A model generated the notes under the pieces. It ran no database searches, was not told the DNA's origin, and saw nothing but the letters and a program-made list of their open reading frames with translations. Shown piece by piece: positions 4,987 to 62,050 of a stretch of DNA of 64,000 bases; the stretch's first letter is position 1; each line of letters opens with the position of its first letter. The position numbers and the translations under genes are program-made. Source of the DNA: an uncultured delta proteobacterium (GTDB lineage: Bacteria; Desulfobacterota; BSN033; UBA1163); NCBI GenBank assembly GCA_963695895.1, contig CAVOIK010000015.1:38400-102399 (forward strand). The letters run 5' to 3'.

Positions 4987-6118
4987 GTGATGAACGATTC
5001 CATTAGAATTCCCCAGGTTGACCCAAGAGCGAGTTATCTGGCCCACAAAGATGAGATCGATGCGGCGATTGCGCGGGTGTTGGCGAGTGGTCGATACATC
5101 CTAGGGCAGGAAGTCGCCACGTTTGAACAGGAGTTTGCAGATTACATCGGGGTGAAATTTGGAATCGGTGTCGGAAGTGGCACGGATGCTCTGCACTTGG
5201 CGTTGCGAGCCTGCGGGGTTAGGGCAGGGGATGAGGTGATCACGGTGTCGCACACGGCCGTCGCCACCGCAGCGGCGATTGAGCTATCCGGAGCCAGAGC
5301 CTGTCTTTGTCGATATTGAACCGGACACGTTCCTAATGAGCCCGAACTGGATTGAAAAAGCGATAACGCCTCACACCAAAGCGATTCTCCCTGTCCACCT
5401 CTATGGCAATGTCGCAGAGATGGAGAGGATTTTAGATGTAGCAAATCACTATGGACTTCATGTCATTGAAGACTGTGCCCAATCTCATGGAGCCAGGTAC
5501 AAGGAGCGTCGGAGCGGTGCTTGGGGGACCGTAGCGGCCTTCAGCTTCTATCCCACGAAGAACTTGGGAGCCCTTGGAGACGGCGGAATGGTGGTCACGA
5601 ACGATTCTGAACTTGCGACACGAGTTCGTTCTCTACGGGAGTACGGGTGGCATCAGCGCTATGTCAGTGAAACAGCAGGGGTGAACTCACGCTTGGATGA
5701 GTTACAGGCAGCTGTGCTTCGGGTGAAACTGAAGTATCTGGATGGGTCGAATGAAGAGAGAAGGAGAAAGGCGCTGCTCTATACCCAGAGGCTTCAGGGT
5801 GCGGATGTCCGGTGCCCCGCCGTCAGGAAGCATGTCGATTCCGTTTATCACCTGTATGTGATCCGAACAATAGAGAGAGATTCGTTGGGGGCTTTCTTGA
5901 GGGATCGAGGGATCCAAACCCTCATTCATTATCCTGTTCCCGTTCATCTCCAGAACGCCTACAAAAAGTTGGGATACGGGACAGGAGACCTTCCCGTGAC
6001 CGAAGAGGTCTCTCGACAGATCCTGTCACTTCCTCTCTATCCAGAGATGCCAGAATCGGAAATCGAAGAGGTATCGTCCCAGATAGAGAATTTCTTCAAG
6101 AAGTATCCTGCGAAATGA
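4987..6118 (+). pseudogene. DegT/DnrJ/EryC1/StrS-family sugar aminotransferase (WbpE/PglE/ArnB-like), apparent +1 frameshift ~nt 5296
   Basis: ORF 4987..5319 ends ...VITVSHTAVATAAAIELSGA and ORF 5279..6118 continues EPVFVDIEPDTF...FSFYPTKNLGALGDGGMVVTND. One extra A in gccAgag. Confidence 0.6.
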
Positions 6119-6210
6119 AGCTCCCCGCCCCTACCTGCCTGCGGAAGCCAGGGGGGGAATTCACATACACAACGAATCAGTCCGAAATTGGCATGGTTCC
6201 GCTCGAACAG

Positions 6211-14053: not shown

Positions 14054-14303
14054 TGAAACTGGATTCACCACGGAAACACGCCTGCCTAGCGGCAGGCAGA
14101 CCTTCGCAAATAGAATTGCGGAATCTCCTGAAGATCCTAAACACATGATGGGATCTCTGTTTTGAAACCATGGAAGGCTTTTCATTTGGCAGGTACCCCT
14201 TCGATTGACTCAGGGCCGTGAGCGCGGTCGAACGGCTCCACGCCAAATAGAACAAGTTTTCTCCGTGACCTCTGTGGTAGAAATTCTTTCTTGGATAAGA
14301 CTT

Positions 14304-19365: not shown

Positions 19366-20500
19366 TCACTCCTGAAGGACACGATGAACGAGGTCCAAGA
19401 AGATCATCTGGTTCTGCTGCGCCGAAAGAAGGCCGGCGACTTTATGAGATTGAGATTTATAATAGTTTATCTTCTGTGAGTCAAGTTGGCTTAAACATTC
19501 CGCTAATGCCCGCGGGGAAAAATCTCTTGAGACGACACCCAGATCGTGTTCCCGCACAATTCGTGTCATTTCGGGGGACGGACCGATGGCAATGGCAAGT
19601 CGAGCTTGAATGAATTCAAAGAGCTTGTTAGGGAGGGCGTGGTAATAGTTGAAGTTCGTCGGCTCGAGCAAGAAAACACCTAAATCGAATTGGTTCAAGT
19701 ACTTAGGTAGAGTGCGCATCGGTACAGGGGGTAAGAAATGAATATTTTCTTTCTTTTTGGCCAGTCGCTTCAAATGCTTCACGTACCCGGGCCATTTCTC
19801 GATGAGGAGCAAATTGAGCTCGAAGCGTCCGTCGAGGTAAGTCCATCATGTGAATCATATTTTCGATTTTCCGAGATGGGCCGACGGCACCATGGTGGGC
19901 CAAGCGAATCTGAGAAGAATTGTAGTCCAGGGGACGCGGTGAAAGGTCTTCGAACTCCCTTGCATTGGTGATCACGGTGGGTCGTGTGAGGAACTCCTTT
20001 TCGTAGGCTTCAGCAATGCCTTCGCACACCGTGATCATAGCATCGACTCGAGGGATATAGGTCCTGCAAAGATAGGCATTATAATCCTGGAGAAACAGTC
20101 GCCACAAGAAAATATCTTCAAATTCGAGAGGGGAATACTCGTGGGCATCCAAAATCACCTTGGCTCCCTGGGCAACCCTCAAAGCCACTGGCAAGGCTTC
20201 GATGTCATTAGCAAGAACAAGGTCCACTCGAAGATGAGACAGCTTCTTAAGGCAATCGATGACATGTCCCTGGCCCCAGTACCAGCTTTCAAAACGACGC
20301 GTGAGGAGTTTAAGGGAAGGGAGAGCGAGCGCGATCATGTTTATTTTTTTTACGATGGGGACAAACTCGACCCCTTCGACCCCTGGAGGGGCGAGTCCAG
20401 CAGCCACTACGCGGTAGTCTTTGCTGAGAAAGCGGATCTGACGGTTCACCCTGGGATCCGTTGCCAGATCTGAAAAAGAAAGAACAAGGATGGTTTTCAT
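19366..20500 (-). pseudogene. uncharacterised GT-B-like protein, paralog A of three tandem copies; apparent +1 frameshift ~nt 19840
   Basis: ORF 19703..20500 MKTILVLSFSDLATDPRVNRQIRFL...HHGAVGPSRKIENMIHMMD and ORF 19366..19812 ...LIEKWPGYVKHLKRLAKKKENIHFLPPVPMRTLPKYL... align end-to-end with intact paralog B. DGRFELNLLLIEKW is readable upstream of ORF 19366 in its frame. Confidence 0.55.
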
Positions 20501-20507
20501 CAGTCCT

Positions 20508-21641
20508 CTATCCTTGAAGCACCTGTTCGACGAGACGGAGCAGGAGGTTCTTGTTTTCTTCTGCCGAAAGAAGCCGGGCTGCTCGATGAGACTGTAACTT
20601 GTAATGGTCTATTTTGTTCTGATCCAAATTCCGTAGGCGCTCGGCCAACGCTTCAGGAGTGAAGTTATCAGCCACCACCCCTAAGTCATATTCCTTGACA
20701 ATCCGCGCCATCTCTGGTGAAGGCCCGACGGCAAGGGCGAGGCGAGCCTGAATGTATTCGAAGAATTTGTTGGGAAGGATGTGAAAATAGTTGAAGTTTG
20801 TAGGCGCGATGAGAGAAACACCGATATCAAATTGATGCAGGTACCGTGAGAGCGTTCTCATGGGTTGGGGTGGAAGGAAACGGACGCTGGGTCTCTTGGC
20901 GCCCAGTTTTTTCAAAAACTTGATATATCCCGGATTCGCAGGGATGAACATGAGATTGAGTTCAAAACGGTCGTCAAGAAAATCCATCATCCTGATCATA
21001 TGTTCTATCTTCCGTGACGGACCGGCAATCCCATGATGAATCAGGCGAATCTTTCTCTCCTGTTGATCAAATAGGTTGGGTTCGAGGTCTTCATAATCCG
21101 GGGCGCTCGTGATCACGAGAGGTTTGACTCCGGTGTCTTTCTCATAGGCCTCTGCAATGCCTGGACAGACCGTCGTCATGCCATGGACCCGCGGGATGTA
21201 TGTTTTGCAGAGATAGGTCGAGTATTCCTGAAAAAGGAGCCTCCACTGAAACACATCTTCGTATTGTCGCGGCGCGTACTCATGAGCATCGAAGATGACT
21301 TTACCTCCCCTGGCCAACCGTAACGCCACTGGCAGGGCATCGAGATCATTTGTAAGGAAGAGGTCTGCCCGGACATGCGATAGAGCCCTGAGGCAATACT
21401 GAATATGACTTTGTCCCCAGTACCAGCTTTCGTATCGCCGAGCGAGAAGTTTCAGGGCAGGCAGAAGAAGCCGTAATCTGTTGATCTCTTTCACGAGAGG
21501 AATGAACTCCACACCCTCGATGCCAGGATCAGCCAACCCAGCAGCAACAACACGGTAACGGTCGCGCAGAAAACGGATCTGACGGTTAACCCGGGGGTCC
21601 GTGGCCAGATTGGAAAATGAGAGGATAAGGATCATCTTCAT
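20508..21641 (-). CDS. uncharacterised GT-B-like protein, paralog B (intact, 377 aa)
   Basis: MKMILILSFSNLATDPRVNRQIRFLRDRYRVVAAGL...; C-terminal half GT-B-like (FFEYIQARLALAVGPSPEMARIVKEYDLGVV). Confidence 0.5.
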   Translation of the reverse strand: MKMILILSFSNLATDPRVNRQIRFLRDRYRVVAAGLADPGIEGVEFIPLVKEINRLRLLLPALKLLARRYESWYWGQSHIQYCLRALSHVRADLFLTNDLDALPVALRLARGGKVIFDAHEYAPRQYEDVFQWRLLFQEYSTYLCKTYIPRVHGMTTVCPGIAEAYEKDTGVKPLVITSAPDYEDLEPNLFDQQERKIRLIHHGIAGPSRKIEHMIRMMDFLDDRFELNLMFIPANPGYIKFLKKLGAKRPSVRFLPPQPMRTLSRYLHQFDIGVSLIAPTNFNYFHILPNKFFEYIQARLALAVGPSPEMARIVKEYDLGVVADNFTPEALAERLRNLDQNKIDHYKLQSHRAARLLSAEENKNLLLRLVEQVLQG

Positions 21642-21649
21642 ACGATGAC

Positions 21650-22788
21650 CTATGCTTCAAGAACTTGCCTGACGAGATCGGTCAAGATCTTCTTGTTCTG
21701 TTCTGAGGACAAGGTCCGTGCGATCTTGTGAGACTGCAACTTATAATAATTCACTTTTTCCCGATCCAACGCTAGAAGGCAACGCGCAAGCGCTACCGGG
21801 GTAAAATCCGGCGAGATGAGACCGAGGTCATGTTCTTTCACAATCCGAGCCATCTCCGGGGAAGGTCCGATCGCGAGGGCAAGCCGAGCCTGGATAAATT
21901 CGAAGAATTTGTTGGGTAGGCTATGAAGGGAATTGAAGTTGAGGGGTTCGAGAAGATGTACTCCTACATCGAAGGAATTGAGGACCCGAGGAAGAATTCT
22001 CATGGGGACGGGGAGGAGAAAATGGATGTTTGCCCTGCGTCGAGCCAAACCCTTCAGATGGTTGAGATATCTTGAGTCTGAACCGGTTAACATGAAGTTA
22101 AGTTCGAATCGGTCGTCCAGATCGTCCATCATTCTGATGATATTCTCCACCTTTCGAGGGGGGCTGGCAACGCCGTGATGAATGAGATGGATTCGCGTTT
22201 GGTCCTTCGAACGAAGCTGTGGTTGAATTTCCTCGTAATCGGTAGCACTGGTGATGACAAGCGGTTTGATCCCTGTATCGCGTTGATAGGCCTCGGCGAT
22301 CCCTTGACAGACGGTGGTCATCCCATGGACCTGGGGAATGTACTTTCGGCACAGATAGGTCGCATAATTTTGGAAGAGGAGCCTCCATGAGAGAACATCT
22401 TCGTATTCCCGCGGGTGCATACTCGTGGGCATCCAGGATCACCTTGGCCCCCTTTGGCCACTTTCAATGCCAGAGGAAGGGTTTGAAGGTCATTGGCCAG
22501 GATCAGGTCCGCATGGACGTTCGACAGTTTGTTGAATGCATCGATGACGTGCTTTTGCTGCCAGTACCAATGATCATACCGGTGGAATAGGATTTGAAGG
22601 AAGGCCAAAGGATTGGGAGAGCTCTTCTTCATTTTCGTGACAGGAATGAACTCCACGCCCTCCACCTCGGGATGAGCCAGACCGACAGCAATGACGCGAT
22701 ACGTGTCCCTGAGAAAGCGTATTTGACGATTGACCCGAGGGTCAGTGGCAAGGTTTGAAAAAGCGATAATGAGGATGGTCTTCGTCAT
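21650..22788 (-). pseudogene. uncharacterised GT-B-like protein, paralog C; two +1 frameshifts ~36 nt apart (~22411 and ~22447, the latter in a C5/G5 run)
   Basis: Minus-strand frames give ALKVAKGG / KVILDAHEYAP / REYEDVLSWRLLFQNYATY..., matching paralog B ALRLARGGKVIFDAHEYAPRQYEDVFQWRLLFQEY. Confidence 0.55.
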
Positions 22789-37545: not shown

Positions 37546-37589
37546 CTGCCGCACACACCCCATAACACTTTTTGATGAAGTGTGTCCAA

Positions 37590-37752
37590 TTGGATTCCCT
37601 TCCACCTGGCCGGAGAGTTCCCCGTCGCGCCCAGGCAGGATAGGGGGGTCCCTGCCTGCCGGCAGGCAGGCACAATATAGAAATAGTAAATCATTGTCGG
37701 GAAGTCCCGGGCTGTGCCTGCCTGTCGGCAGACAGGCGCGGGAGCTTCATAA
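37590..37752. repeat. BIME/REP-like mosaic intergenic repeat unit (type 2)
   Basis: Contains palindrome cctgcctgccggcaggcagg, box cacaatatagaaatagtaaatcattgtcgggaag, second palindrome ctgtgcctgcctgtcggcagacaggcgcgggagcttcat. Near-identical unit at 41172-41302. Confidence 0.6.
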
Positions 37753-37820
37753 TTTCCTTGATTAACTTGATTAAGTTGTGAAGTTTTGTTAGAAAAGCCT
37801 TAACCGAATGGAGTCCAACC

Positions 37821-38543
37821 ATGGTTCCAAGCGAGAAAGTTCTGGTGATCATCCCAGCCTATAATGAAGAGAAATCGATCGGGAAGGTCATCGAAGACGT
37901 CAAGACCCATTTCCCGCAAGCAGATATTCTGGTGGCTAATGATGGATCCACGGATCACACGTCTGAACGGGCTAGGAACTGTTCAGTGACCGTCCTGGAT
38001 CTTCCCTACAATCTAGGCATCGGGGGGGCGGTGCAGGCCGGTTATAAGTATGCTTTTGAGAAAGAATATGATGTCGCCATTCAGGTGGATGGAGACGGAC
38101 AACATGCACCCAAAGAGATCCGTAAGCTCTTTGAAAATTTGATCAAGAACGGAAATGACATGACCATCGGGTCTCGTTTTCTGGGTGGCTCAGAGTACCG
38201 GGCCTCCCTGATGCGCCGGGTGGGAATTACGATTCTCTCCATGGTCGTCTCTGTCCTCATCAGACAAAAAGTCACGGATCCAACGTCGGGATTCCGGGCA
38301 GCAAGTCGAAGGGCGATTCAACTCTTCGCCCTGGATTACCCCCAGGACTATCCTGAGCCAGAGGTTCTGGTTCTGTTGAGCCGTAACGGTCTGAAGATCG
38401 AAGAAGTTCCGGTAAAAATTGAGCAACGATCCTTCGGAGAATCTTCGATCACGAACATCAGGGCCATCTACTACATGATCAAAGTGTTACTGGCCATTTT
38501 CGTGGATTGTTTTAAGAAAAAGACCCCTTTGACCGGCAAGTGA
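37821..38543 (+). CDS. GT2 polyprenyl-phosphate glycosyltransferase (GtrB/ArnC/DPM1-like)
   Basis: 240 aa VLVIIPAYNEEKSIGKVI...VANDGSTDHTSE...VDGDGQH...PTSGFRA, classic Dpm1/GtrB motifs. Confidence 0.65.
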   Translation: MVPSEKVLVIIPAYNEEKSIGKVIEDVKTHFPQADILVANDGSTDHTSERARNCSVTVLDLPYNLGIGGAVQAGYKYAFEKEYDVAIQVDGDGQHAPKEIRKLFENLIKNGNDMTIGSRFLGGSEYRASLMRRVGITILSMVVSVLIRQKVTDPTSGFRAASRRAIQLFALDYPQDYPEPEVLVLLSRNGLKIEEVPVKIEQRSFGESSITNIRAIYYMIKVLLAIFVDCFKKKTPLTGK

Positions 38544-38642
38544 CCCGTCCCGCCTGAGCGGGAAGGGCGGGGTCACGGGGCACAATATGAAAGGAAGCTA
38601 CCTTACCGGGAAGCCCGGCCCTTTAGGGCGGGGAGATTCACA
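38540..38642. repeat. BIME/REP-like mosaic repeat unit (type 1) with terminator-like hairpin and SD-bearing 3' end
   Basis: Hairpin gtgacccgtcccgcc-tgagcgggaag-ggcggggtcac; gggcacaatatgaaagga; ccgggaagcccggccctttagggcggggagattcac, ending 16 nt before the ATG at 38657. Confidence 0.55.
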
Positions 38643-38656
38643 TAGGAGAACCAAAG

Positions 38657-39040
38657 ATGTTGATCAAAATCCAAATTATCATCGGAGCCCTGAGCATTGC
38701 TCTCCTCCTCTTTACGTGTGAGTTGATTCGGCAGAAGAGACTGAGGGAGGAGTATTCTCTCCTTTGGCTATTTACCGCCGGAGCAACTTTCATTTTCAGC
38801 CTCTCTCCAAACTTCTTCCTTGCCAAATTTTTCAGCCGTATCACAGGCCTCTACTATCTTTCGGCGGTCGTGCTGATCCTCTTTGCCTTTCTGCTTTTGA
38901 TCGTCTTCCATTTCTCGGTGGTGATCTCAAAGCTTACTGATCGAAACAAGGAGCTGACGCAGCGGTACTCCCTCTTGGAACTGGAATTTAAGGAATTCAA
39001 GAAACAGCTTTCTTCAGAGCCGAGGAGAAATCCATCATGA
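38657..39040 (+). CDS. DUF2304-family small membrane protein (GT2/GtrA-associated)
   Basis: 127 aa, 3-4 hydrophobic helices, cytoplasmic coiled C-terminus; immediately downstream of the GtrB-like GT2. Confidence 0.45.
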   Translation: MLIKIQIIIGALSIALLLFTCELIRQKRLREEYSLLWLFTAGATFIFSLSPNFFLAKFFSRITGLYYLSAVVLILFAFLLLIVFHFSVVISKLTDRNKELTQRYSLLELEFKEFKKQLSSEPRRNPS

Positions 39041-39996
39041 CAAGAGCCTTGGTCACCGGAGGAGGGGGGTTCATCGGGTCCCACCTGGCTGAAGCCCTAC
39101 TTAAGAAAGGGCATGGGGTTCGGATCCTTGATGACTTCTCAACGGGCAAGAGAGAAAACCTAACCTTCAGAAATCACACTCCTTCGCTGGACATTGTCGA
39201 AGGAGATATTCGCGACCTGGTCCTCTGTCAAAAAGCGATGGAAGGGGTGGACTATGTCTTCCACCAAGCGGCCCTGCCGTCCGTCCAACGCTCTGTGGAG
39301 GATCCCCTCGGTTCCAATGCGGTAAATGTGGGAGGAACACTCAACGTCCTTCTTGCAGCGAGGGATGCGAAAGTGAAGCGAGTGATGTATGCGTCTTCTT
39401 CATCGATCTACGGCGATACGCCAACGCTACCGAAGAAAGAAGACATGTCTCCCACGCCGCTTTCGCCTTATGCTTTGCAAAAATACACAGGAGAGCAATA
39501 CTGCCGGCTTTTTTCCCAGCTCTATGGTCTCGAAACGGTCTCATTGAGATACTTCAATGTCTTTGGTCCAAGACAAGACCCAAACTCTGTCTACTCAGCC
39601 GTCATCCCAAGATTTATTGAGGCCTTGCTCCACCGACGGTCTCCCATTGTTTACGGAGACGGAGAACAGTCACGGGATTTCACCTACATTGACAATGTGG
39701 TCCAGGCAAACGTGTTGGCCATGTCTGCTCAAGGTCTTCAAGGAGAGATCGTCAACATCGCCTGCGGGCAGAGGATCTCATTGAACCAACTGCTGGGGTT
39801 CTTGAAGCAGTTCATCCCTTCAGAGAGACCCGCGGTTTACGAGGAGGCAAGGCCAGGAGATGTTCGACATTCTTTAGCCGATATCTCTAAGGCAAAGGAC
39901 TGCTTGAGGTACGAGCCGATAGCGAGTATTGAAACCGGACTGAAAAGGACTGTCGAATTTTTTGGCCGGCAAGTGTCCCGCAAGCCCCATCCTTGA
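39037..39996 (+). CDS. NAD-dependent epimerase/dehydratase (WbpP/TviC-like UDP-sugar 4-epimerase)
   Basis: 319 aa MTRALVTGGGGFIGSHL...YASSSSIYGD...YALQKY (YxxxK). Confidence 0.6.
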   Translation: MTRALVTGGGGFIGSHLAEALLKKGHGVRILDDFSTGKRENLTFRNHTPSLDIVEGDIRDLVLCQKAMEGVDYVFHQAALPSVQRSVEDPLGSNAVNVGGTLNVLLAARDAKVKRVMYASSSSIYGDTPTLPKKEDMSPTPLSPYALQKYTGEQYCRLFSQLYGLETVSLRYFNVFGPRQDPNSVYSAVIPRFIEALLHRRSPIVYGDGEQSRDFTYIDNVVQANVLAMSAQGLQGEIVNIACGQRISLNQLLGFLKQFIPSERPAVYEEARPGDVRHSLADISKAKDCLRYEPIASIETGLKRTVEFFGRQVSRKPHP

Positions 39997-40072
39997 AGGT
40001 GGGGTCGAGGGGCACAATATAAAAGGAAACGACCCTACCGGGAAGCCCCGCCTTCAGGGCGTGGAGCTTCAC
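39990..40072. repeat. BIME/REP-like mosaic repeat unit (type 1)
   Basis: gggcacaatataaaaggaaacgaccctaccgggaagccccgccttcagggcgtggagcttcac, ~25 nt before the GTG start at 40099. Confidence 0.55.
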
Positions 40073-40098
40073 AAAGCGTCCGTGAAAGGGATTGAAAA

Positions 40099-41094
40099 GT
40101 GAGAGAGAAGGGGCAACGGAAGACCTTGGAAAGACTCGTTCGTGACTTTGCAGAGGCGAAAATTCTCGTCGTTGGCGATATCATGGTAGACCGCTTTATC
40201 TGGGGCAAGGTGTCGCGGATTTCCCCGGAGGCTCCTGTTCCTGTCGTCCTTATTGACAAGGAGACTTTTCTCTTCGGAGGAGCTGCAAACGTCGTCCATA
40301 ATATCCATACCCTTGGAGGGTCCGTATCGCTCTGTGGCGTGGTGGGGGAGGATGACCTGGGGCAGAGGATTCTGAAGGGCTTGGAAGAGGTCGGGGTTCG
40401 AACCGATGGAATCTTTGTGGAACAGGGAAGACAGACGACCGTGAAAACCCGGGTCATTGCCCACCAGCAACAGGTGGTGCGAATTGACCGTGAAACGACG
40501 GACCATTTGAAGAGGTCAACGTTGCAAGAGTTGTTGAACTTCATTCATCACCATATGAAAGATTTTGACAGCATCGTTCTCTCCGATTATGGGAAGGGGT
40601 TGCTCACACGGGGGCTGATCCGGTCCCTGATCAAGAAGGCAAGACAAACCAAGACGCGCGTCTTGGTTGATCCGAAGGTGAAAAATTTTTTCTCTTACAG
40701 GGGAGCCAGCGTGATCACTCCCAACACGACTGAGGCGGGTGCAGCCTCTGGCGTGGCGATTACGGACTTGTCCTCTTTGAAGAGGGCAGGCAAGGTTCTT
40801 CTGAGACGACTCCGATGCGATATCCTCCTGGTCACTCGAGGAGAAGAGGGAATGGCCGTGTTCGAGCCTCACAAAGAACCTCTCCTCGTCCCCACCGTGG
40901 CGAAGGAAGTCTATGATGTCACTGGAGCAGGAGACACGGTCATTGGGACAATGAGTCTCGCCTTGGCTGCCGGTGCAAGTACACGTGCAGCGGCCAATCT
41001 GGCCAACTATGCCGCTGGGATCGTGGTCGGCAAGGTCGGGACAGCGACGGTCAACCGAGAGGAACTGATTCAGGTCATCAGAGAAAGCCACTGA
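40099..41094 (+). CDS. D-glycero-beta-D-manno-heptose-7-phosphate kinase (RfaE/HldE domain I only; PfkB-family sugar kinase)
   Basis: 331 aa ...ILVVGDIMVDRFIWGKVSRISPEAPVPVV...GGAANVVHNI...DVTGAGDT; no adenylyltransferase domain. Confidence 0.65.
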   Translation: MREKGQRKTLERLVRDFAEAKILVVGDIMVDRFIWGKVSRISPEAPVPVVLIDKETFLFGGAANVVHNIHTLGGSVSLCGVVGEDDLGQRILKGLEEVGVRTDGIFVEQGRQTTVKTRVIAHQQQVVRIDRETTDHLKRSTLQELLNFIHHHMKDFDSIVLSDYGKGLLTRGLIRSLIKKARQTKTRVLVDPKVKNFFSYRGASVITPNTTEAGAASGVAITDLSSLKRAGKVLLRRLRCDILLVTRGEEGMAVFEPHKEPLLVPTVAKEVYDVTGAGDTVIGTMSLALAAGASTRAAANLANYAAGIVVGKVGTATVNREELIQVIRESH

Positions 41095-41171
41095 AGAAAG
41101 GACAGAAAAGGCCCCATGCTCGGGAAAACAAGAGTACCACCGAGGTCCGAGAATGAGGCCTTTAATGTTAG

Positions 41172-41302
41172 ACCGGAGCGTGCCCCGTCCCGCCTTAGCG
41201 GGATGAGCGGGGCTTGCGGCAGGCACAATATTAAATAACAAATCATTGCCGGGAAGCCCCGCGCTGTGCCTGCCTGCGGTAGGCAGGCGCGGGGACTTCG
41301 CA
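41172..41302. repeat. BIME/REP-like mosaic repeat unit (type 2)
   Basis: gccccgtcccgccttagcgggatgagcggggc hairpin; aggcacaatattaaataacaaatcattgccgggaagccccgcgctgtgcctgcctgcggtaggcaggcgcggggacttcgc. Confidence 0.6.
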
Positions 41303-41581
41303 TTATGTTTCGAGGACGAAAATCACTTCCATTCTCACCCGGTATTCAATAATCTTTGTATTCTCCACAGCAACCCTGAACTCCACCACGCGCATCCCGG
41401 TGACACCCCTCAAAGTTTTCAATGCCCTTGAGAACCCTGTCCGGACAGCTTCATCAAACCCTTTGGGAGACCCTGCAATAATTTCTGTGACTCTTGCGAC
41501 CCTAGGCTCTGTCATTCTAATCACCTCCTTTGCCGTGAGATCGTTCACCTGACCTAAAAGTTTACACAGAATTCCGAACAA
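41303..41581 (-). CDS. dodecin-family flavin-binding protein
   Basis: 92 aa ...VARVTEIIAGSPKGFDEAVRTGFSRALKTLRGVTGMRVVEFRV...EYRVRMEV, matching the dodecin fold signature. Confidence 0.6.
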   Translation of the reverse strand: MFGILCKLLGQVNDLTAKEVIRMTEPRVARVTEIIAGSPKGFDEAVRTGFSRALKTLRGVTGMRVVEFRVAVENTKIIEYRVRMEVIFVLET

Positions 41582-41799
41582 AAGTCAACGGAAAAAAGAA
41601 TGAAGAAAGTAAGCATTTAGTTACTGGTGGCGACCTGCCCAGTGTGGTCTTCTCCGAACCCCTGTATGGCGGGTCTTCAGACGAATGGATGACGGGACTT
41701 GCGGAGCTGGGAGATTGTATTTAAGGCAGTTCGTTTCTGCAGTTGGACACGCAAGGGTACCGCCACAGGGTTTCTCCGAAGACCACACCGGCCCGGCCG

Positions 41800-41966
41800 C
41801 CTGTCATTTCTCCACCCTTGGCCGGCAAGCTGCCCCGTAAGCCCCACCCTTGAGGGCCTGCCCTTAAAGGCAGGTCCCTGCCTGCCGGCAGGCAGGAAGG
41901 GGCACAATATAAAAGGAAAGTACCTTATCGGGAAGCCCAGCCCTTTAGGGCGTGGAGCTTCACTAA
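41800..41966. repeat. BIME/REP-like mosaic repeat unit (type 1, long form)
   Basis: ...gccccacccttgagggcctgcccttaaaggcaggtccctgcctgccggcaggcaggaaggggcacaatataaaaggaaagtaccttatcgggaagcccagccctttagggcgtggagcttcac. An inverted copy lies at 54068-54215. Confidence 0.6.
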
Positions 41967-42325
41967 GAAGCTGTGAAAAGATCAAAAACGTTCAAAAAAT
42001 AGAGCTTGTCCTGCACGGACGGTTCTCTTGGAGAACTTTGGATCGGAACCCCTTGCCGTTCAATTCAATCGGCTGAATTGCAATAACTTCGTACCCTTAC
42101 TGCCACGAAATGTTGCCCGGAATATGATGCTCCGCATTCCAAAGGTGCGGAAAGAGAGCCATCCTGGAAGGGGCAAGCGCAAATGAATAGCAATTTTGTC
42201 GCGCCCTCTGAATGTTTGCGGCAAGAGAGATTATGTTGTTGATTAATTTGCCAATTGTGTTATATGTTTTTTTCGATTATATTTTCATGGGTTATGCGGG
42301 TTCAGGTGGACAGGAGTTAGAGCCG

Positions 42326-43291
42326 ATGCAGAGTGCGCAACTGCGCCAGACTCATCCATGGATTCGACAGTTCATATCCTATTTGTCGGCAGAGAAGAAT
42401 GCCTCGCCCCACACCTGTCGAAACTATCAACGGGACCTGGAGCAATTCGAAAATTTCTTGAAGGATTCAGGGACGTGTCTGACCCCGTCTGGTGAGATGG
42501 ATGTTGGCAAAGTAGATCGTCTGGTTCTTCGAAGGTATTTGAGTTTCCTTCACAAGAAAAACAAGAAGAGTTCAATCGCAAGAAAAGTCTCCACGTTGCG
42601 ATCTTTCTTCAAGTACCTCGTCCGCGAACAACTCGCATCAGCCAATCCGGCCAAGGGTGTTTCTTCTCCCAAACTGGAGAAGGTTCTTCCGACGACCCTC
42701 ACGGTGGATGAAGCCTTTCGTTTGGTGGAATCTCCTGCGGAGAAGCACGATCACCCGAACCTCAGAGACCGAGCCATTCTGGAACTTCTCTATTCGAGTG
42801 GCATTCGGGTGAGTGAGTTGGTGGGTTTGAACCTGAAGCAGCTCGATTTCGACTTAGGGCTCGTCAGGGTGATGGGAAAACGTAAGAAAGAACGGATTGC
42901 TCCTGTCGGCTCGAAAGCGATGGAATCTCTCCGTGCCTATTTGAAGGATAGGGGAGAGATGGAGGAGGAAGAACCGTTGTTTGTTAACAGTCGGGGAGGG
43001 AGGTTGACGAGTCGAAGCGTGGGACGACTGGTCAAGAAATACACGAAGCGGGCAGGTATCTTCAGAAACATTAGTCCTCACACCCTCCGTCACACCTTTG
43101 CCACTCACCTCCTCGATTCGGGAGCGGATATCCGCGAAATCCAGGAGATGCTTGGGCATGCCAGCCTCTCAACGACCCAAAGATATACTCACCTCACCCT
43201 TGGGAAGTTGATGGAAGTTTACGACAAGGCCCATCCTCGAAGCTTTGGAGCCGCCGAGTATAATAAGGAAAAAAAGAATAGTAATCAGTAG
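42326..43291 (+). CDS. xerC: tyrosine recombinase XerC (chromosome dimer resolution)
   Basis: Phage-integrase N-terminal SAM-like domain plus C-terminal RHRY catalytic residues (...HTLRHTFATHLL...GHASLSTTQRYTHL). Conserved xerC-hslV-hslU order. The ORF opens at 42212; ATG 42326 gives ~321 aa. Confidence 0.75.
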   Translation: MQSAQLRQTHPWIRQFISYLSAEKNASPHTCRNYQRDLEQFENFLKDSGTCLTPSGEMDVGKVDRLVLRRYLSFLHKKNKKSSIARKVSTLRSFFKYLVREQLASANPAKGVSSPKLEKVLPTTLTVDEAFRLVESPAEKHDHPNLRDRAILELLYSSGIRVSELVGLNLKQLDFDLGLVRVMGKRKKERIAPVGSKAMESLRAYLKDRGEMEEEEPLFVNSRGGRLTSRSVGRLVKKYTKRAGIFRNISPHTLRHTFATHLLDSGADIREIQEMLGHASLSTTQRYTHLTLGKLMEVYDKAHPRSFGAAEYNKEKKNSNQ

Positions 43292-43442
43292 TCAGTGAGC
43301 AGTAATCAGTGATCAGTGGTCAGTAATCAGTAAGCAATGACTTAATGACCAATAACTAGTGGGTTAATGACCCAATTACCCAATAACCTAATAAGCGATA
43401 ACCTGGTGACCAGTGGTTTAATGACCCAATAACCCAATGACG
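43276..43442. repeat. heptanucleotide tandem-repeat array (cagtRRt x~9, then cccaata/taatgac-type units)
   Basis: aatagtaat cagtagt cagtgag cagtaat cagtgat cagtggt cagtaat cagtaag caatgac ttaatga ccaataa ...; begins inside the last codons of xerC and fills the xerC-hslV spacer. Confidence 0.6.
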
Positions 43443-43490
43443 AGAATAATTGGAGGTCTTGTGGAGGAGGGCGATACGGGGAGACAAGTC

Positions 43491-44024
43491 ATGAAGAAGA
43501 TGCATGGTACAACGGTTCTCTGTGTTCGACACAAGGGGAAGGTCGTGATGGCTGGAGATGGCCAGATTACCCTCGAACAAACGATCATGAAGCATACGGC
43601 GAGGAAGGTCCGCAGGATTTACCAGGACAGAGTCTTGGCCGGATTTGCCGGAGCCACGGCAGATGCCTTCACCCTGTTCGCGAAATTCGAGGAGAAGCTG
43701 GAGCAGTATAACGGCAATCTGCTCAGGGGCGCTGTCGAACTGGCCAAGGACTGGAGGACGGACAGGATCCTTCGACGATTGGAGGCACTTTTGATTGTTG
43801 CCGATACGGAGCACACCCTCATCATCTCGGGAAATGGGGACGTCATCGAGCCTGATGATTCAATGACAGCCATCGGGAGCGGGGGCCCTTATGCCCATGC
43901 CGCAGCCAAAGCCCTGACCTCCTTTTCGAATCTTGATGCGCGAGCCATTGCAGAAGAGGCAATGAAGATTGCTGCGTCCATTTGCATCTACACCAATGAG
44001 CGGATCATCCTGGAGGAACTGTAG
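43491..44024 (+). CDS. hslV: ATP-dependent protease subunit HslV
   Basis: ...[39 protein letters not shown]...GSGGPYA; N-terminal Thr after a short leader, as in CodW. Confidence 0.75.
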
Positions 44025-47771: not shown

Positions 47772-47895
47772 TCCATGGACATTGACTGATGATCAATGAC
47801 TCATGACTCAATGACTCAATGACCTTACTGACCCAATGACCCAATGACTCAGTGACTGAATGACTGAATGACCTCATGACTCAGTGATCCATCGG
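47767..47895. repeat. octanucleotide tandem-repeat array (Rtgactca / atgaccca, ~13 units)
   Basis: caatgatc catggaca ttgactga tgatcaa tgactca tgactcaa tgactcaa tgacctta ctgaccca atgaccca atgactca gtgactga atgactga atgacctc atgactca gtgatcca; begins at the argD stop. Confidence 0.6.
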
Positions 47896-51126: not shown

Positions 51127-51176
51127 ACGGGCAAGTCGGCTGGATGCCCCGCCTTGGGGCGGGGAGCTTCATTCAC
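51127..51176. repeat. REP-like short unit
   Basis: gggcaagtcggctggatgccccgccttggggcggggagcttcat, the same module as at 54763-54800 and 61716-61745. Confidence 0.5.
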
Positions 51177-53055: not shown

Positions 53056-54108
53056 ATGAAAAAACACGCAGACCTCTATCCTGTCTATTTGTTCTACGGC
53101 CCCGAGGACTTTCTCATGGAGGAGGAAATCGAGAGACTTCTCGAGAAAACCCTTTCGCCGAAGGAGAAAGGGTTGAATCTCCATGTCTTCAGTGCGGAGG
53201 AGCATAGTGCTCAAGAGATCGCCCAGGCGGCACAGACCCTTCCCATGTTCTCCCAGTACCGTTTTGTTCTGGTCAAAGAAGCGGACCAGTTGGAAGAGGA
53301 TAAAGTCAAGATCCTATTGAGGTACATCGAAAACCCTTCACCCAGTACCTGCCTCGTTCTCCAGGGTTTAACTCTGGGATCCTGGAGAGGCCACCAGGCC
53401 CAGATCGAGAAAGTCGGAAAAGTGGTTGAATATTCTCGGCTCCGAGGAAAATCACTTATGTCGTGGCTAAGAAACAAGATGGCTGAGAAGGGAAAGGCAC
53501 TTTCAGAGGCAGCGGCAGATTATCTGGTGGAGGTGGTTGGAGACAGTCTTTTTCATTTGGAAAGTGCTCTCGAGAAGGCTTTCCTCATGGTGGGAGAAAG
53601 ACGAACGGTTGAACTCTCCGATATCGAGGGAATGGTTGCCGATATCAAGTTGAGTACGGTCTTTGATCTGACGGATGCGATCAGCCGTCAGGATGTAGAG
53701 AAAGCACTTGGAGTTTTGGAGAAGGTCATGGGGTCGAAGGTTCTTTCCTTCAAAAAAGGTGAAGAGGCATCTAAGGTGGGCGATCCCATTCCGCTTCTCT
53801 TGAACATGATGGCTCGTCAATATCGGTTGATCTGGAGGGCCAAGGTCTTGAAGAGCCGGCAAGCCCCGCTCGGAGAGATGGTGAAAGAGTTGAGAATGTC
53901 CCAATGGATGGTCAAGAACCTCATCGATCAATCAAAGAACTTCTCAGAGTTTTCCCTCCGCGAAGGGATCCTGAAGTGCCATCGGACAGACCTTGCCGTG
54001 AAGCGAGGTCGTGGCCCGAAAGAACTGTTGATGGAAAAGTTGGTTATTGACCTATGCCATCCGAGCGAAGTGAAACTCCACGCCCTAAAGGGTGTAGCTT
54101 CCCGGTAA
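53056..54108 (+). CDS. holA: DNA polymerase III delta subunit HolA
   Basis: 350 aa MKKHADLYPVYLFYGPEDFLMEEEI...; conserved position after lptE. The last ~13 codons (SEVKLHALKGVASR*) are encoded by a REP element. Confidence 0.65.
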   Translation: MKKHADLYPVYLFYGPEDFLMEEEIERLLEKTLSPKEKGLNLHVFSAEEHSAQEIAQAAQTLPMFSQYRFVLVKEADQLEEDKVKILLRYIENPSPSTCLVLQGLTLGSWRGHQAQIEKVGKVVEYSRLRGKSLMSWLRNKMAEKGKALSEAAADYLVEVVGDSLFHLESALEKAFLMVGERRTVELSDIEGMVADIKLSTVFDLTDAISRQDVEKALGVLEKVMGSKVLSFKKGEEASKVGDPIPLLLNMMARQYRLIWRAKVLKSRQAPLGEMVKELRMSQWMVKNLIDQSKNFSEFSLREGILKCHRTDLAVKRGRGPKELLMEKLVIDLCHPSEVKLHALKGVASR

Positions 54109-54360
54109 GGTACTTTTATTTTCTATTGTGTCCCTTCCTGCCTGCCAGCAGGCAGGGACCCCGTCCTCAAGGGCGGGGCTTAGGGGGCACTTGCCGGTCA
54201 AGGGGAAGAAGAGTCTCCAGGTGAGCGGTAAAGCGAACCCGATGGGCCGTTGACCCGTTCGGCCGCGCCAATCCGCGTCTTTCAAGACGGAGTGAAGGAG
54301 CGCGGCTCAGGGTCAACCCTGAGCAAGCTCCGGCCTTTAGGCCGGGGAGTCGAAGGGTTG
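54068..54360. repeat. cluster of REP/BIME-like units (inverted long type-1 unit, plus a 'ctcagggtcaaccctgag' hairpin unit)
   Basis: Reverse complement of 54068-54215 aligns with 41840-41966. 54306-54360 ctcagggtcaaccctgagcaagctccggcctttaggccggggagtcgaagggttga recurs at 61935-62045. Confidence 0.55.
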
Positions 54361-54629: not shown

Positions 54630-54759
54630 CGTTTAACCCCTTTCTGTGAAGTTTATTGATTTTTCTAACATTTTCATTTAGCGTGTGTCAAGTTTTGCTT
54701 CCTTTTCCCGTCACATGGATAAGGAGTAGAGGCGATAGATCAAGAGGAGAACGTCCAGT

Positions 54760-54886
54760 CGCGGGCAAGTCGGCTGGATGCCCCGCCTTGTACGCGGGGA
54801 GGAAGATCGACCCTGTCATCATATCTACATTACCCGGAAGCCCCGCCCTGTGCCTGCCTGCGGTAGGCAGGGACGGGGAGCTTCAC
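54760..54886. repeat. REP/BIME-like mosaic unit immediately 5' of murJ
   Basis: gggcaagtcggctggatgccccgccttgtacgcggggaggaagatcgaccctgtcatcatatctacattacccggaagccccgccctgtgcctgcctgcggtaggcagggacggggagcttcac; same architecture at 61716-61850. Confidence 0.6.
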
Positions 54887-54892
54887 TGTCCT

Positions 54893-56416
54893 ATGACTGA
54901 ACAACACAAGATTACCAGAGCAGCCACCACGATCGGGACCGGAACGCTTCTCAGTCGTATCCTGGGATTTCTGAGGGATATGGTTATTGCCAATTTCTTT
55001 GGGGCCGGGATGGCAGCAGACGCTTTTTTTGTCGCTTTTCGCCTTCCCAATCTCTGGAGGAGATTGGTCGGAGAGGGGTCGATGACCATCTCCTTTATCC
55101 CCGTCTATACGGAGTACCTGACGCAGCGTTCAGAGGAAGAATCGAGGGAACTGACCCACATCGCCTTTACGTTGGCTGGGACTCTCTTGGCCATCCTCAC
55201 CATTCTGGGCGTCGTTTTTGCGCCCCTCCTCGTACGGATCATTGCACCAGGATGGGTGAGAAAATCCCCAGAAACATTCCAACTGACGGTAACGTCTTAG
55301 TCAGGATCATCTTTCCCTATATCTTCTTCATGGGCTTGTTTGCTCTGGCCATGGGGATACTGAATTCCCGCAGGCATTTTTTCGCCCCCTCTCTTGCTCC
55401 GGTCTTTCTCAACATCTGCATGATTCTGTCTGTTCTGCTATTTTTTTTCCATTTAAAACCACCTGTGTTGACTCTTGCCTTCGGAGTTCTTGCCGGGGGT
55501 GTTCTGCAGTTCTTGTTTCAGATCCCTTTTTTGTCGAAGAAGGGGATCACCTTTCGATTCAACTTTGATGTCAGGCATCCCGCCATTCGACGAATCGGGC
55601 TTCTCATGGTTCCGGGTCTGATCGGGACGGCGGTCTATCAACTCAACGTCTTTATCGATACGATCTTTGCTTCCTTTTTGCCCGGCGGAAGCGTTTCCTA
55701 TCTTTACTTTGCGGACCGACTCATGGAGTTTCCCCTCGGGATCTTTGCAGTCGCCATGGGGGTGGCTGCCCTCCCCAGTCTTTCAGAACTGGCCTCTAGG
55801 GGAAGGAAAGAGGAGCTGAGCGAAACCGTTTCGTTTGCGTTTCGGCTCGTTTCCTTTATCAGTGTTCCTGCACTGGTAGGGTTGATTGCCTTGAAGACGC
55901 CTATCATCAACCTTCTCTTCCAGAGGGGAGTTTTCGACGAACATGCGACCCAGATGACGGCGAGAGCTCTGCTCTGCTATTGCGTGGGACTCTGGGCCAT
56001 CGCCGGAGTGAGGACCGTTGTCCCCGCCTTCTATGCCCTCCAGGATACGAAGACCCCTTTGAAGATTGGACTGATTTGCTTGGGCGCAAATGTTGTCCTG
56101 AATGCCGCTCTTGATCGTTCCTCTCCAGCATGCTGGGTTAGCCCTTGCCACCAGTCTTTCATCTTTCCTGAACCTCGTTCTTCTGTCGAGGAAACTGAGA
56201 GAAGCCCTGGGAAAGATCGACTTCAGGAAGGATATCAAATCTCTAATGCGACACTTTGCCTGCAGCGTGCCCATGGGGTTGGCGGCCTATCTGATTTGTT
56301 CTTCTGGAGACTGGACCCAGGCGGGCCGCAGCCTGCCCAAGCTTTTTCTTCTGATGATTGGAATCGTTGTCGGAGCAGGCGTCTACCTGGCGTGCTCTTA
56401 CTGGACGAAAGAATGA
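54893..56416 (+). pseudogene. murJ: lipid II flippase MurJ (MviN) with two apparent frameshifts (~55297 and ~56113)
   Basis: MTEQHKITRAATTIGTGTLLSRILGFLRDMVIANFFGAG...PETFQLTVT / LVRIIFPYIFFMGLFALAMGILNS...GLICLGANVVLNAAL / IVPLQHAGLALATSLSSFLNLVLLSRKLRE...YLACSYWTKE*. Confidence 0.7.
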
Positions 56417-56491
56417 AGAGATGCTGTTCTTGTTGAAGATGGTGAAAAGGAAGAGGCGACCCTGAAGAGCAGGAAGGGACCGTTCCTTGCT

Positions 56492-61658: not shown

Positions 61659-61715
61659 GTTTCCCTCCCGTTGTTCGGATTATAGCTCTGGTCGTTCACC
61701 CTGTCAATTTTTCAC

Positions 61716-62050
61716 GGGCAAGTCGACTGGGAGCCCCGACTTGCCTGCCTGCGGTAGGCAGGTAATCGGGGAGGAAAGCCGACCCTATAGTCATATTTAC
61801 ATCTCCCGGAAGCCCCACCCTCTGGGCGGGTGCTTCCTTTTTCACTTTCCAGAGTTCATCTCATCTGCAAGAAGACCAAGGCATTGACCCTGCGATTCTG
61901 TCCAGGTTCTCTATTTTAGATTTACGAGAAGAGAGTACTCAGGGTCAACCCTGAGACTCAACTTGAACGGCTCGACTGAGCCCTTCGGTCTTGAGCGACT
62001 CAGGGTCGAAAGATTCGCCGAATTCTTGGGTCGAAGGGTTGACTTTTCTT
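61716..62050. repeat. REP/BIME-like units (two) in the divergent spacer before argS
   Basis: 61716-61850 gggcaagtcgactgggagccccgacttgcctgcctgcggtaggcaggtaatcggggaggaaagccgaccctatagtcatatttacatctcccggaagccccaccctctgggcggg; 61935-62045 ctcagggtcaaccctgag...cgactcagggtcgaaag...gtcgaagggttgac. Confidence 0.55.

Follow-up and report, generated by a model that had tools for sequence, protein, structure and literature searches.

Palindromic repeats in a 64,000-nt stretch of an uncultured delta proteobacterium (contig CAVOIK010000015.1; hereafter the window) are copies of one non-coding mobile element of ~106-141 nt with fixed ends, and not assemblies of independent boxes. The unit is gained and lost precisely between strains, which shows its mobility, and it probably belongs to a non-autonomous, gene-less family that is moved as single-stranded DNA (ssDNA) by an HUH-type enzyme encoded elsewhere, with incidental effects on genes. 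Nine copies were found in the window using nhmmer and a covariance model (CM), five of them within 4.4 kb at 37.6-42.0 kb (Table 1), and unit limits were refined by strain comparisons and flank statistics. A first-pass annotation had described five units built from common modules in this 4.4-kb region, and all five were recovered at about the positions it gave, all on the + strand. It had likened them to the bacterial interspersed mosaic elements (BIMEs) of E. coli, and this holds in so far as they are intergenic palindromic repeats, broadly analogous to repetitive extragenic palindromic (REP) sequences and BIMEs, with modules that are shared and shuffled; the modules do not, however, exist as separate boxes.

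Mobility was seen in contigs of other strains, which were found by the exact DUF2304 protein of the window, encoded in many other samples, and which were taken as the same species (contigs and loci are given by L number). The site of copy 3 is filled in the window, L056, L057, L059, L063 and L064 and empty in L058, L060, L061, L062 and L065. The filled allele reads gaattttttg[GCCGG...GAGCTTC]acaaagcg, and the empty allele is gaattttttgagaaagcg in L061 and ttttttcagaaagcg in the other empty contigs. Copy 5 is absent in L061 (ctccacccttg^actaagaagc), its filled allele being cccttg[GCCGGCAAG...GGAGCTTC]actaagaagc, with boundaries that cannot be shifted by one base. From these alleles it follows that the insert runs from the R of RCCGG through the C of CTTC and lies between TTG and A. 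There was no target duplication, and there were no terminal inverted repeats, at these two clean empty sites. At a third site, a main-type element in L066 abuts atctatcgcc where the reverse strand of the window reads ctcttg^atctatcgcc, and only the right junction is visible. These presence/absence differences of 100 nt were seen in many independent assemblies and are unaffected by assembly indel errors.

The flanks of all collected copies agree with these junctions. On the left (n=180), T (44%) or C (23%) is found at position -4, T at -3 (66%) and -2 (92%), and G at -1 (97%), while on the right (n=155) position +1 is A in 94% and +2 is C in 66% and never G. As the element starts with A/G and ends with TTC (CTTC), both junctions can be written as TT(G/C)^(A/G).

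Alignment of 50 loci showed that the modules are parts of a single unit with sharp ends. Given with its flanks in brackets, the basic unit of ~106 nt reads (TTG)ACCGGAACGTGCCCCGCAAGCCCCGCCTTGTAGGCGGGGTCAAGGGGCACAATATAAAATGAAATTACCTTGCCGGGAAGCCCCGCCCTGTGGGCGGGGAGCTTC(AC). Its 5' end, RCCGG (RCCGGNANGTGCCCCG), belongs to a fixed 16-nt 5' extension, and the first GC-rich hairpin usually comes after (C/T)AAG (..AAG-CCCCGCC-loop-GGCGGGG). Between the two hairpins lies an AT-rich core, CACAATATAAAATGAAATTACCTTGCC (CACAATATAAAA...), with a conserved linker of ~40 nt. The second hairpin is much like the first and has the same (direct) orientation, with GAAG before it and AG-CTTC after it, the 3' end of the unit being AGCTTC. 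The two ends, RCCGG... and ...AGCTTC, are not mutual inverted copies, and terminal inverted repeats are absent. In the window, the box CACAATATNAAA-N14-CGGGAAGC was found four times exactly and once with one mismatch, the module GGAAGCCC..GGAGNTTCA four times, and the 20-nt palindrome CCTGCCTGCCGGCAGGCAGG in two perfect and three close (1-3 mismatches) copies, each against an expectation of 0 (for the box, in shuffles). A sixth listed match of the palindrome was discounted, as it merely overlaps a perfect copy.

Four pairings can be drawn within the unit: CCGG with CCGG (P0), GTGCCCC with GGGGCAC (P1), the first hairpin (P1a), which has two alternative forms, and the second hairpin (P2), made of GAAG + CCCCGCCC / GGGCGGGG + AG bulge + CTTC. 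When individual window copies were folded as ssDNA, this architecture was recovered, and z-scores for the element strand were -1.8 to -3.2. Compensatory change was found at one pair only, which is C-G in 12 sequences and G-C in 11 (GCCC/GGGC to GGCC/GGCC).

The mosaic look of the unit arises because extra hairpins have been inserted into it, namely the 20-nt palindrome and a GTGCCTGTCCCGTCCTAACGGGATGG hairpin, which occur after or in the loop of the first hairpin or in the loop of the second. Other forms are one-hairpin minis of ~43-70 nt (L057, L078, L101, L107, L178), long-core variants and solo second-type hairpins reading GTGAAGC...GCTTCAC. Internal deletions that remove the core are frequent (the minis, the L056 form and L026). 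Internal modules are also polymorphic in place. The 20-nt palindrome varies in presence at GGGGTC^AAGGGG. L068 has the palindrome of copy 6, which L066 and L067 lack, the 19-nt palindrome in the loop of copy 4 is absent in L056 and L058-L065, and copy 4 of L057 has an additional 20-nt palindrome after the first hairpin. Copy 1 is core-less and internally rearranged in eight strain contigs (L056, L058-L060, L062-L065), copy 2 is replaced in L057 by a 52-nt one-hairpin mini at the same site, and a 34-nt CCTGCC...GGCAGG hairpin has been inserted into unique DNA in L056-type strains.

The element is widespread. A scan for the box pattern in one genome per species (19 specified bases in 596 Gb, ~4 chance matches expected) found 55 loci, of which five, in Balneolaceae, Bacteroidaceae, two Clostridiales and Sumerlaeota, had no other features of the unit and were taken as chance matches. 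The remaining 50 loci fall in 17 species of metagenome-assembled genomes (MAGs) labelled Thermodesulfobacteriota, Syntrophaceae, Syntrophorhabdus or 'delta proteobacterium', one MAG having 16 exact-pattern loci, and at least 120 metagenome stretches match the left-end pattern. Between the window and the named MAG loci, no shared orthologues or usable synteny were found. The term 'lineage-specific' of the first-pass annotation does not fit near-identical units in so many MAG species and metagenome stretches. The 149 collected sequences hold 169 copies, nine of them inside long open reading frames (ORFs) by a crude gene call. Some sites have retained a copy in more than one species (L009/L040/L051, L004/L012, L023/L033). 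For L023 and L033, both from Syntrophaceae MAG species, the right flank is 98% identical up to the element and the left flanks are unrelated; the position of the element exactly at this synteny breakpoint suggests rearrangement by recombination between copies. The viral sequence collection contained no match to the element, and a literature search for its characteristic strings returned unrelated primer matches only. In the window and eight loci, Rfam searches (at the gathering score and at E up to 10) gave only chance-level matches of the miRNA hairpin type, and a tRNA/tmRNA search found none.

Transposition of ssDNA by an HUH-type enzyme is inferred because the element has neither inverted ends nor target duplication, has like hairpins in direct orientation, has a target that remains outside it, and has a related tetranucleotide at its end. 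An enzyme encoded elsewhere in the genome, of the REP-associated or IS200-IS605 type (Y1) or of the IS91 type (Y2), would recognise the two subterminal hairpins and nick one strand at TTG^A on the left and TTC^A on the right. The excised strand would then be pasted into single-stranded TTG^A sites, preferably on the lagging-strand template. Effects on neighbouring genes would be incidental, with landings in intergenic DNA or in final codons, the latter rewriting C-termini. A strand bias is consistent with such a route: the G-rich strand carries 69 of 106 copies (p=0.002), and 43 of 59 where the absolute skew is at least 0.04. Skew and gene majority disagree in 23 cases, and in 15 of these the orientation goes with skew. 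The window has positive GC skew over its whole length, and eight of its nine copies are on the + strand. CAAG, before the first hairpin, is complementary to the CTTG flank, and GAAG, before the second, to the CTTC end.

Several observations weigh against this explanation. The skew bias is moderate (65%), and its proxy, GC skew measured over a few kb, is imperfect. Local skew is also confounded with coding-strand composition, since most genes lie on the G-rich strand in 77 of 95 loci. Variants of the flank (GTG, CTG) are unmatched by changes in CAAG or GAAG, so no covariation was found. Copy 4 (TAG / ... / GC) and some other copies have atypical flanks. Most stem positions are invariant, which leaves structural support beyond sequence conservation thin. 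The in-place module changes could be separate insertions or could reflect gene conversion between copies, and the near-identity of the whole 110 nt across species could reflect selection for a host function. A tblastn search using an IS200 TnpA query found nothing in the ~1.1 Mb of DNA examined, and no transposase-like ORF lies between separated ends or inverted copies in 188 loci, where matches having the left end only or the right end only were variants, minis or solo hairpins. Nor was a REP-associated tyrosine transposase (RAYT) gene flanked by cognate repeats seen in this ~1.1 Mb.

A more far-reaching form of the ssDNA transposition model would make the family an undescribed, hierarchical class of HUH-mobilised miniature elements. 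Its basic mobile unit would be the REP-like hairpin, and the two-hairpin composite would move as a whole by IS91-like ends (YTTG outside, CTTC inside), and no miniature family would have been linked to a Y2 or an atypical Y1 enzyme before it. The 19-34-nt CCTGCC...GGCAGG palindromes would insert independently into loops and unique DNA, with nearly every base of all this conserved in many species of Thermodesulfobacteriota. We regard this as possible, but doubtful.

It may also be asked if the repeat is a domesticated, REP-like binding site for gyrase or for IHF-like and other nucleoid proteins, or an element of RNA stability, which is selected and rarely mobile. Strong conservation of the full unit across 17 MAG species is in keeping with such a role, as is retention at the same sites in different species, and the REPs of E. 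coli do have such roles (PMC3333891, PMC2817692). This is nevertheless unlikely as an alternative, given presence/absence and rapid internal rearrangement among strains of one species and insertions into coding ends; it is moreover compatible with a mobile element, as it concerns maintenance and not origin.

It is quite unlikely that the repeat is a multicopy structured RNA gene or cis-acting RNA, such as an omega-RNA-type scaffold or small RNA, with DNA mobility being secondary. The conserved P0, P1, P1a and P2 architecture would suit an RNA, with loops that tolerate hairpin inserts of variable length as those of structured RNAs do, as would the single-stranded core CACAATATAAAATGAAATTACC, highly conserved across species, and an orientation that is independent of neighbouring genes. 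The core is however often deleted, covariation is limited to the one pair, with most pairs invariant, an Rfam match is lacking at E values as high as 10, neither promoter-like nor terminator-like signals accompany the unit, and copies overlap coding ends in both orientations.

The first-pass annotation had read the repeats as cis cassettes, co-opted by the host as combined terminator, spacer and ribosome-binding site (RBS) for the flanking genes, which is very improbable. Behind this reading are the positions of copies in the GT2-to-PfkB block, where they follow stop codons immediately and precede start codons, the strong GC hairpins and the GGAG within the element. Pfam confirmed the gene calls, namely GT2, DUF2304, NAD-dependent epimerase and PfkB-type kinase, then dodecin and Xer-type recombinase. 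Elements do not flank every gene of this block as had been proposed, as the DUF2304 and epimerase genes overlap by 4 nt with no element between them. At copy 2, the flanking TTG (38529-38531) and the first bases of the element encode the final GT2 codons and the TGA stop (38541-38543), and its right end is 17 nt upstream of the DUF2304 ATG. The GGAG of the element, which lies within the second hairpin with GG paired and AG bulged, is 21 nt upstream of the DUF2304 start and 32 nt upstream of that of the PfkB kinase, which is not RBS distance (5-10 nt). The Shine-Dalgarno (SD) sequence of DUF2304, AGGAGA (38644-38649), is outside the element and unchanged in L057, which carries the mini. AAAGGGA, ahead of the GTG of the PfkB kinase, is likewise outside and the same in strains without the element. 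A supply of SD sequences by the repeats is not supported. The variant copy before murJ is a possible exception, in which GGGGAG (54875-54880), 12 nt before the ATG at 54893, may serve as an accidental RBS, no other SD or purine-rich run being visible there.

Copy 3 gives the clearest view of what an insertion does to genes. Eleven element-encoded codons replace the final ten of the epimerase, with a new stop at 39994-39996. L060 and L061, two of the empty strains, have an epimerase stop and a PfkB kinase GTG start that overlap (GTGA), an arrangement that would imply translational coupling where the element is absent. The insertion destroyed this overlap, the kinase start of the window lying 102 nt 3' of the new stop, and the sequence upstream of the kinase start (aaagcgtccgtgaaagggattgaaaaGTG) is identical with and without copy 3. 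That copy 3 is dispensable in five strain contigs, and that its insertion disrupted such an overlap, count against the cassette reading. In L058, L062 and L065, a 1-nt deletion gives rise to a 313-aa epimerase.

As regards termination, the hairpins are followed by CACAATAT or AGCTTCAC and have no T tract, and terminator-like sites were at chance level (seven found, 6.1 expected). The hairpin at 38541-38578, described previously as terminator-like, does exist but shares this lack of a T tract. Relative to the nearest gene, the 169 copies are oriented alike in 60 cases and oppositely in 62 on the 5' side (63 and 62 on the 3' side), with gene calls made crudely from the longest ORFs, and co-directional, divergent and convergent intergenic regions are occupied roughly in proportion to their total length, which argues against co-option. 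Judged by the refuting condition that the first-pass annotation had set, the modules are placed at random as regards gene orientation, yet copies are intergenic or lie at gene ends. No clustering of copies in the same orientation was seen within loci, with 10 same and 10 opposite outside the window. A role as terminator, spacer and RBS is not supported as a property of the family.

Three promoter-type readings were also rejected. No sigma-70-like site lies wholly within the element, one chance-level match being found across the right junction of copy 1. By eye, a sigma-54 -24/-12 promoter starting from GGCAC-N5 has no GC at the correct spacing. If the TTG^AC(A) target is taken as a TTGACA -35 box, -10 boxes 16-18 nt past the right junction occur in 2 of 153 cases, below control offsets.

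A classical DDE MITE (miniature inverted-repeat transposable element), or a cassette that a tyrosine recombinase mobilises (integron attC-like or a Xer/dif hijacker), is scarcely credible: the repeats are small, intergenic and present in many copies, and copy 5 is 250 nt away from an Xer-type recombinase gene (42212-43291), but the two clean empty sites show neither terminal inverted repeats nor target duplication, no attC R''/R' boxes (RYYYAAC...GTTRRRY) and no convincing dif-like core could be found (by eye only), and the xerC-hslV-hslU arrangement is present in all strains, including that without copy 5. The Xer-type gene is followed by hslV and hslU (42212-44024 onward) in the conserved xerC/codV-hslVU arrangement, and we read it as a housekeeping gene that is not linked to the repeats.

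Table 1. Copies of the element and related features in the window.
Feature	Positions	Strand	Basis and context
Copy 1, extended form	37609-37748	+	nhmmer, CM; divergent region, phosphodiesterase/GT2 genes
Copy 2, basic two-hairpin form	38532-38639	+	nhmmer, CM 92 bits
Copy 3, basic form	39965-40070	+	CM 107.8 bits; inside 3' end of epimerase gene
Copy 4	41172-41299	+	nhmmer, CM; convergent region, PfkB kinase/dodecin genes
Copy 5, extended form, perfect palindrome 41877-41896	41821-41961	+	Empty site in L061
Copy 6, palindrome 54137-54156	54072-54198	-	nhmmer, CM 74 bits; between holA and rpsT
Variant-2 copy, 5' end CGGGCAAGTCGG, usual 3' hairpin and AGCTTC	54762-54884	+	Repeat finder, CM 47 bits
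Variant-2 copy, left boundary approximate	61715-61836	+	Repeat finder, CM 32 bits; upstream of uxaE-like gene (divergent)
One-hairpin mini: variant-2 5' end, hairpin, then GGGGAGCTTC	51128-51170	+	Repeat finder, CM 22.5 bits
Solo 3'-type hairpin GAAGCTCCCCGCCCC...GGGGGGGAATTC, nested palindrome-like insert	6117-6162	+	Repeat finder
Stand-alone small palindrome CCTGCCTRSCGGCAGGCAG, 3 mismatches	14081-14100	.	Unique intergenic DNA
Empty target site CTCTTG^ATCTATCG	54740-54741	-	Filled by main-type element in L066

Copy 1 has a 20-nt palindrome at 37651-37670 and a second one, with two mismatches, in the loop of its 3' hairpin (37717-37736), and the 3' hairpin loop of copy 4 likewise holds the 19-nt palindrome (41268-41286). 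The 3' end of copy 6 overlaps the final 12 codons and the stop of holA. The variant 5' end is common to the copies at 51128, 54762 and 61715, and the mini sits between lptE and a class II tRNA-synthetase-like gene. The solo hairpin begins within the TGA stop (6116-6118) of a DegT-type gene, and similar ones occur in L113 and L098. Among the further family members that had been proposed outside the 4.4-kb region, the mini, copy 6 and the two variant-2 copies were upheld, whereas 54215-54340 and 61930-62050 proved to be a different repeat family.

This second, unrelated family has CTCAGGGTCAACCCTGAG and GTCGAAGGGTTGA in common between its two copies. The copy downstream of rpsT is flanked by TCAAC...TCAAC in the window and is precisely absent in L068, leaving CCAAC, so that it looks like a MITE with a 5-bp target duplication. 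A third element of ~190-240 nt (TGGAGCCCCACGGGCTTAGCCCGTGG...GTAGGCGGA) was found around rpsT in L066 and L067 (window ~54095-54125, 54655). In both contigs it is inserted at AATA^TAAA within the CACAATATAAAA box of the main element, and it also lies upstream of rpsT at TCAA^TAAA in L066 and probably in L067.

Around copy 5 (41600-41817), and around the same-site copies of L009, L040 and L051, there is conserved non-coding DNA in which complementary arms are found at long range (GTGGTCTYCCCTCCGAAA ... TTCTCCGGAGAGACCAC). L056-type strains lack about 130 nt of this DNA. It has no Rfam match and may represent another element or a structured RNA not yet recognised. Tandem repeats of 8 nt (CCCAATGA / CTGAATGA type) occur at 43355-43448 and 47816-47895, 4.4 kb apart, and a possibly related tandem unit of 15-16 nt (GCCCAATGGGTTGAGA) is present 2-4 times inside elements of the main family (L094 1800-1850, L184 1620-1690). 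The region 19538-22453 is a triplicated glycosyltransferase gene, with three tandem copies of a ~1142-bp unit at 60-73% identity and GT4/group 1 glycosyltransferase-like ORFs of 265, 377 and 260 aa, and some of the copies may be truncated. The murJ gene is split into two overlapping ORFs in different frames (54893-55300 and 55252-56436; Pfam MurJ 1-99 and 100-371). A DegT-type aminotransferase ORF (5279-6118), which covers only Pfam positions 87-359 and overlaps an upstream ORF of 110 aa (4987-5319), is probably split as well, that of murJ being certain. These are probably frameshifts, either pseudogenes or, as the several split genes of the window suggest, indel errors of the assembly.

The analysis describes, at sequence level, the ends, target, structure and variants of a mobile repeat that is abundant in uncultivated Thermodesulfobacteriota of sediments and wetlands, and gives strain-resolved evidence that the element is still moving. 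It is of use for annotation, as the repeats extend ORFs, rewrite C-termini and are points at which short contigs break, and for expression, as one insertion separated a translationally coupled epimerase-kinase pair. If the enzyme were found, studies of HUH single-strand transposition would have in the ~106-nt unit, with its TTG^A target, a natural substrate of compact size. The family opens no new kind of biology.

Compared with known systems, this is a new family of a familiar selfish-repeat type, that of REP-like or IS-end-derived miniature elements. What is unusual is the fixed architecture of two direct hairpins, the nested mini-palindromes and the near base-for-base conservation across many species. 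Families of multicopy, palindrome-based intergenic repeats that are often clustered and take up a sizeable intergenic share are described in Geobacter (PMC2996986). These are likewise multicopy and palindromic and occur in related bacteria, and they are described as largely species-specific (PMC2996986).

Canonical REPs have GT[AG]G at the hairpin foot and C[TC]AC in a 'double foot', with a RAYT gene flanked by REPs (PMC6006769). The family shares with REPs and BIMEs its GC-rich hairpins, which are extragenic, high in copy number, 20-40 nt long and marked by a conserved tetranucleotide at their 5' foot, as well as mosaic composites, the occurrence of solo hairpins, lack of coding capacity, a presumed enzyme encoded elsewhere, and insertions that extend or rewrite gene ends. 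The foot is however (C/T/G)AAG and not GT[AG]G, and the solo GTGAAGC...GCTTCAC hairpins resemble, but do not equal, the GT[AG]G...C[TC]AC double foot (PMC6006769). Its hairpins are direct, where the REP pairs of BIMEs are inverted with short linkers. It also has a conserved AT-rich core and a 16-nt 5' extension, and it is the whole ~106-nt unit, not a single hairpin, that is gained and lost.

IS608 is cleaved on the left at TTAC, external to the element and 19 nt 5' of the foot of the left hairpin, and on the right at an internal site, 10 nt 3' of the right hairpin; 4-base guides are found 5' of the feet, and no DNA is gained or lost (PMC3201880). In our element CTTC follows the second hairpin, on its 3' side, at a distance of 2 nt instead of 10 nt, and the left nick of the common form would be placed 20 nt 5' of the foot of the first hairpin. 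Like IS200/IS605 members, the element lacks inverted terminal repeats and target duplication, has like subterminal hairpins in direct orientation, and is inserted 3' of a short specific sequence that remains outside it. Those members are also biased in orientation toward the lagging-strand template strand (PMC5027513), and the strand bias found here, using GC skew as a proxy, is of the same kind. Differences are the target, (T)TG^A instead of TTAC or TTGAT, and guide-to-cleavage-site pairing that covariation does not support; no tnpA/tnpB-bearing parent with these ends was found among 188 loci.

IS91 also makes no target duplication; it has a CTTG/GTTC target outside one end and CTCG/GTTC at the other, by a subterminal palindrome; palindromes are subterminal at both of its ends, and the ori-like end has one or two (PMC13181058). 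The absence of duplication is shared, the YTTG flank compares with CTTG, and the CTTC by a subterminal palindrome at the other end compares with CTCG/GTTC. IS91 differs in needing ~80-90 bp per end, where the whole unit here is ~106 nt, and the preference for A at +1 of the right flank is not among its described features. No miniature IS91 derivatives of this form are known, and no Y2 transposase was found here, no search with an IS91-type query having been made. Ends of the IS91 type fit the element at least as well as those of IS608.

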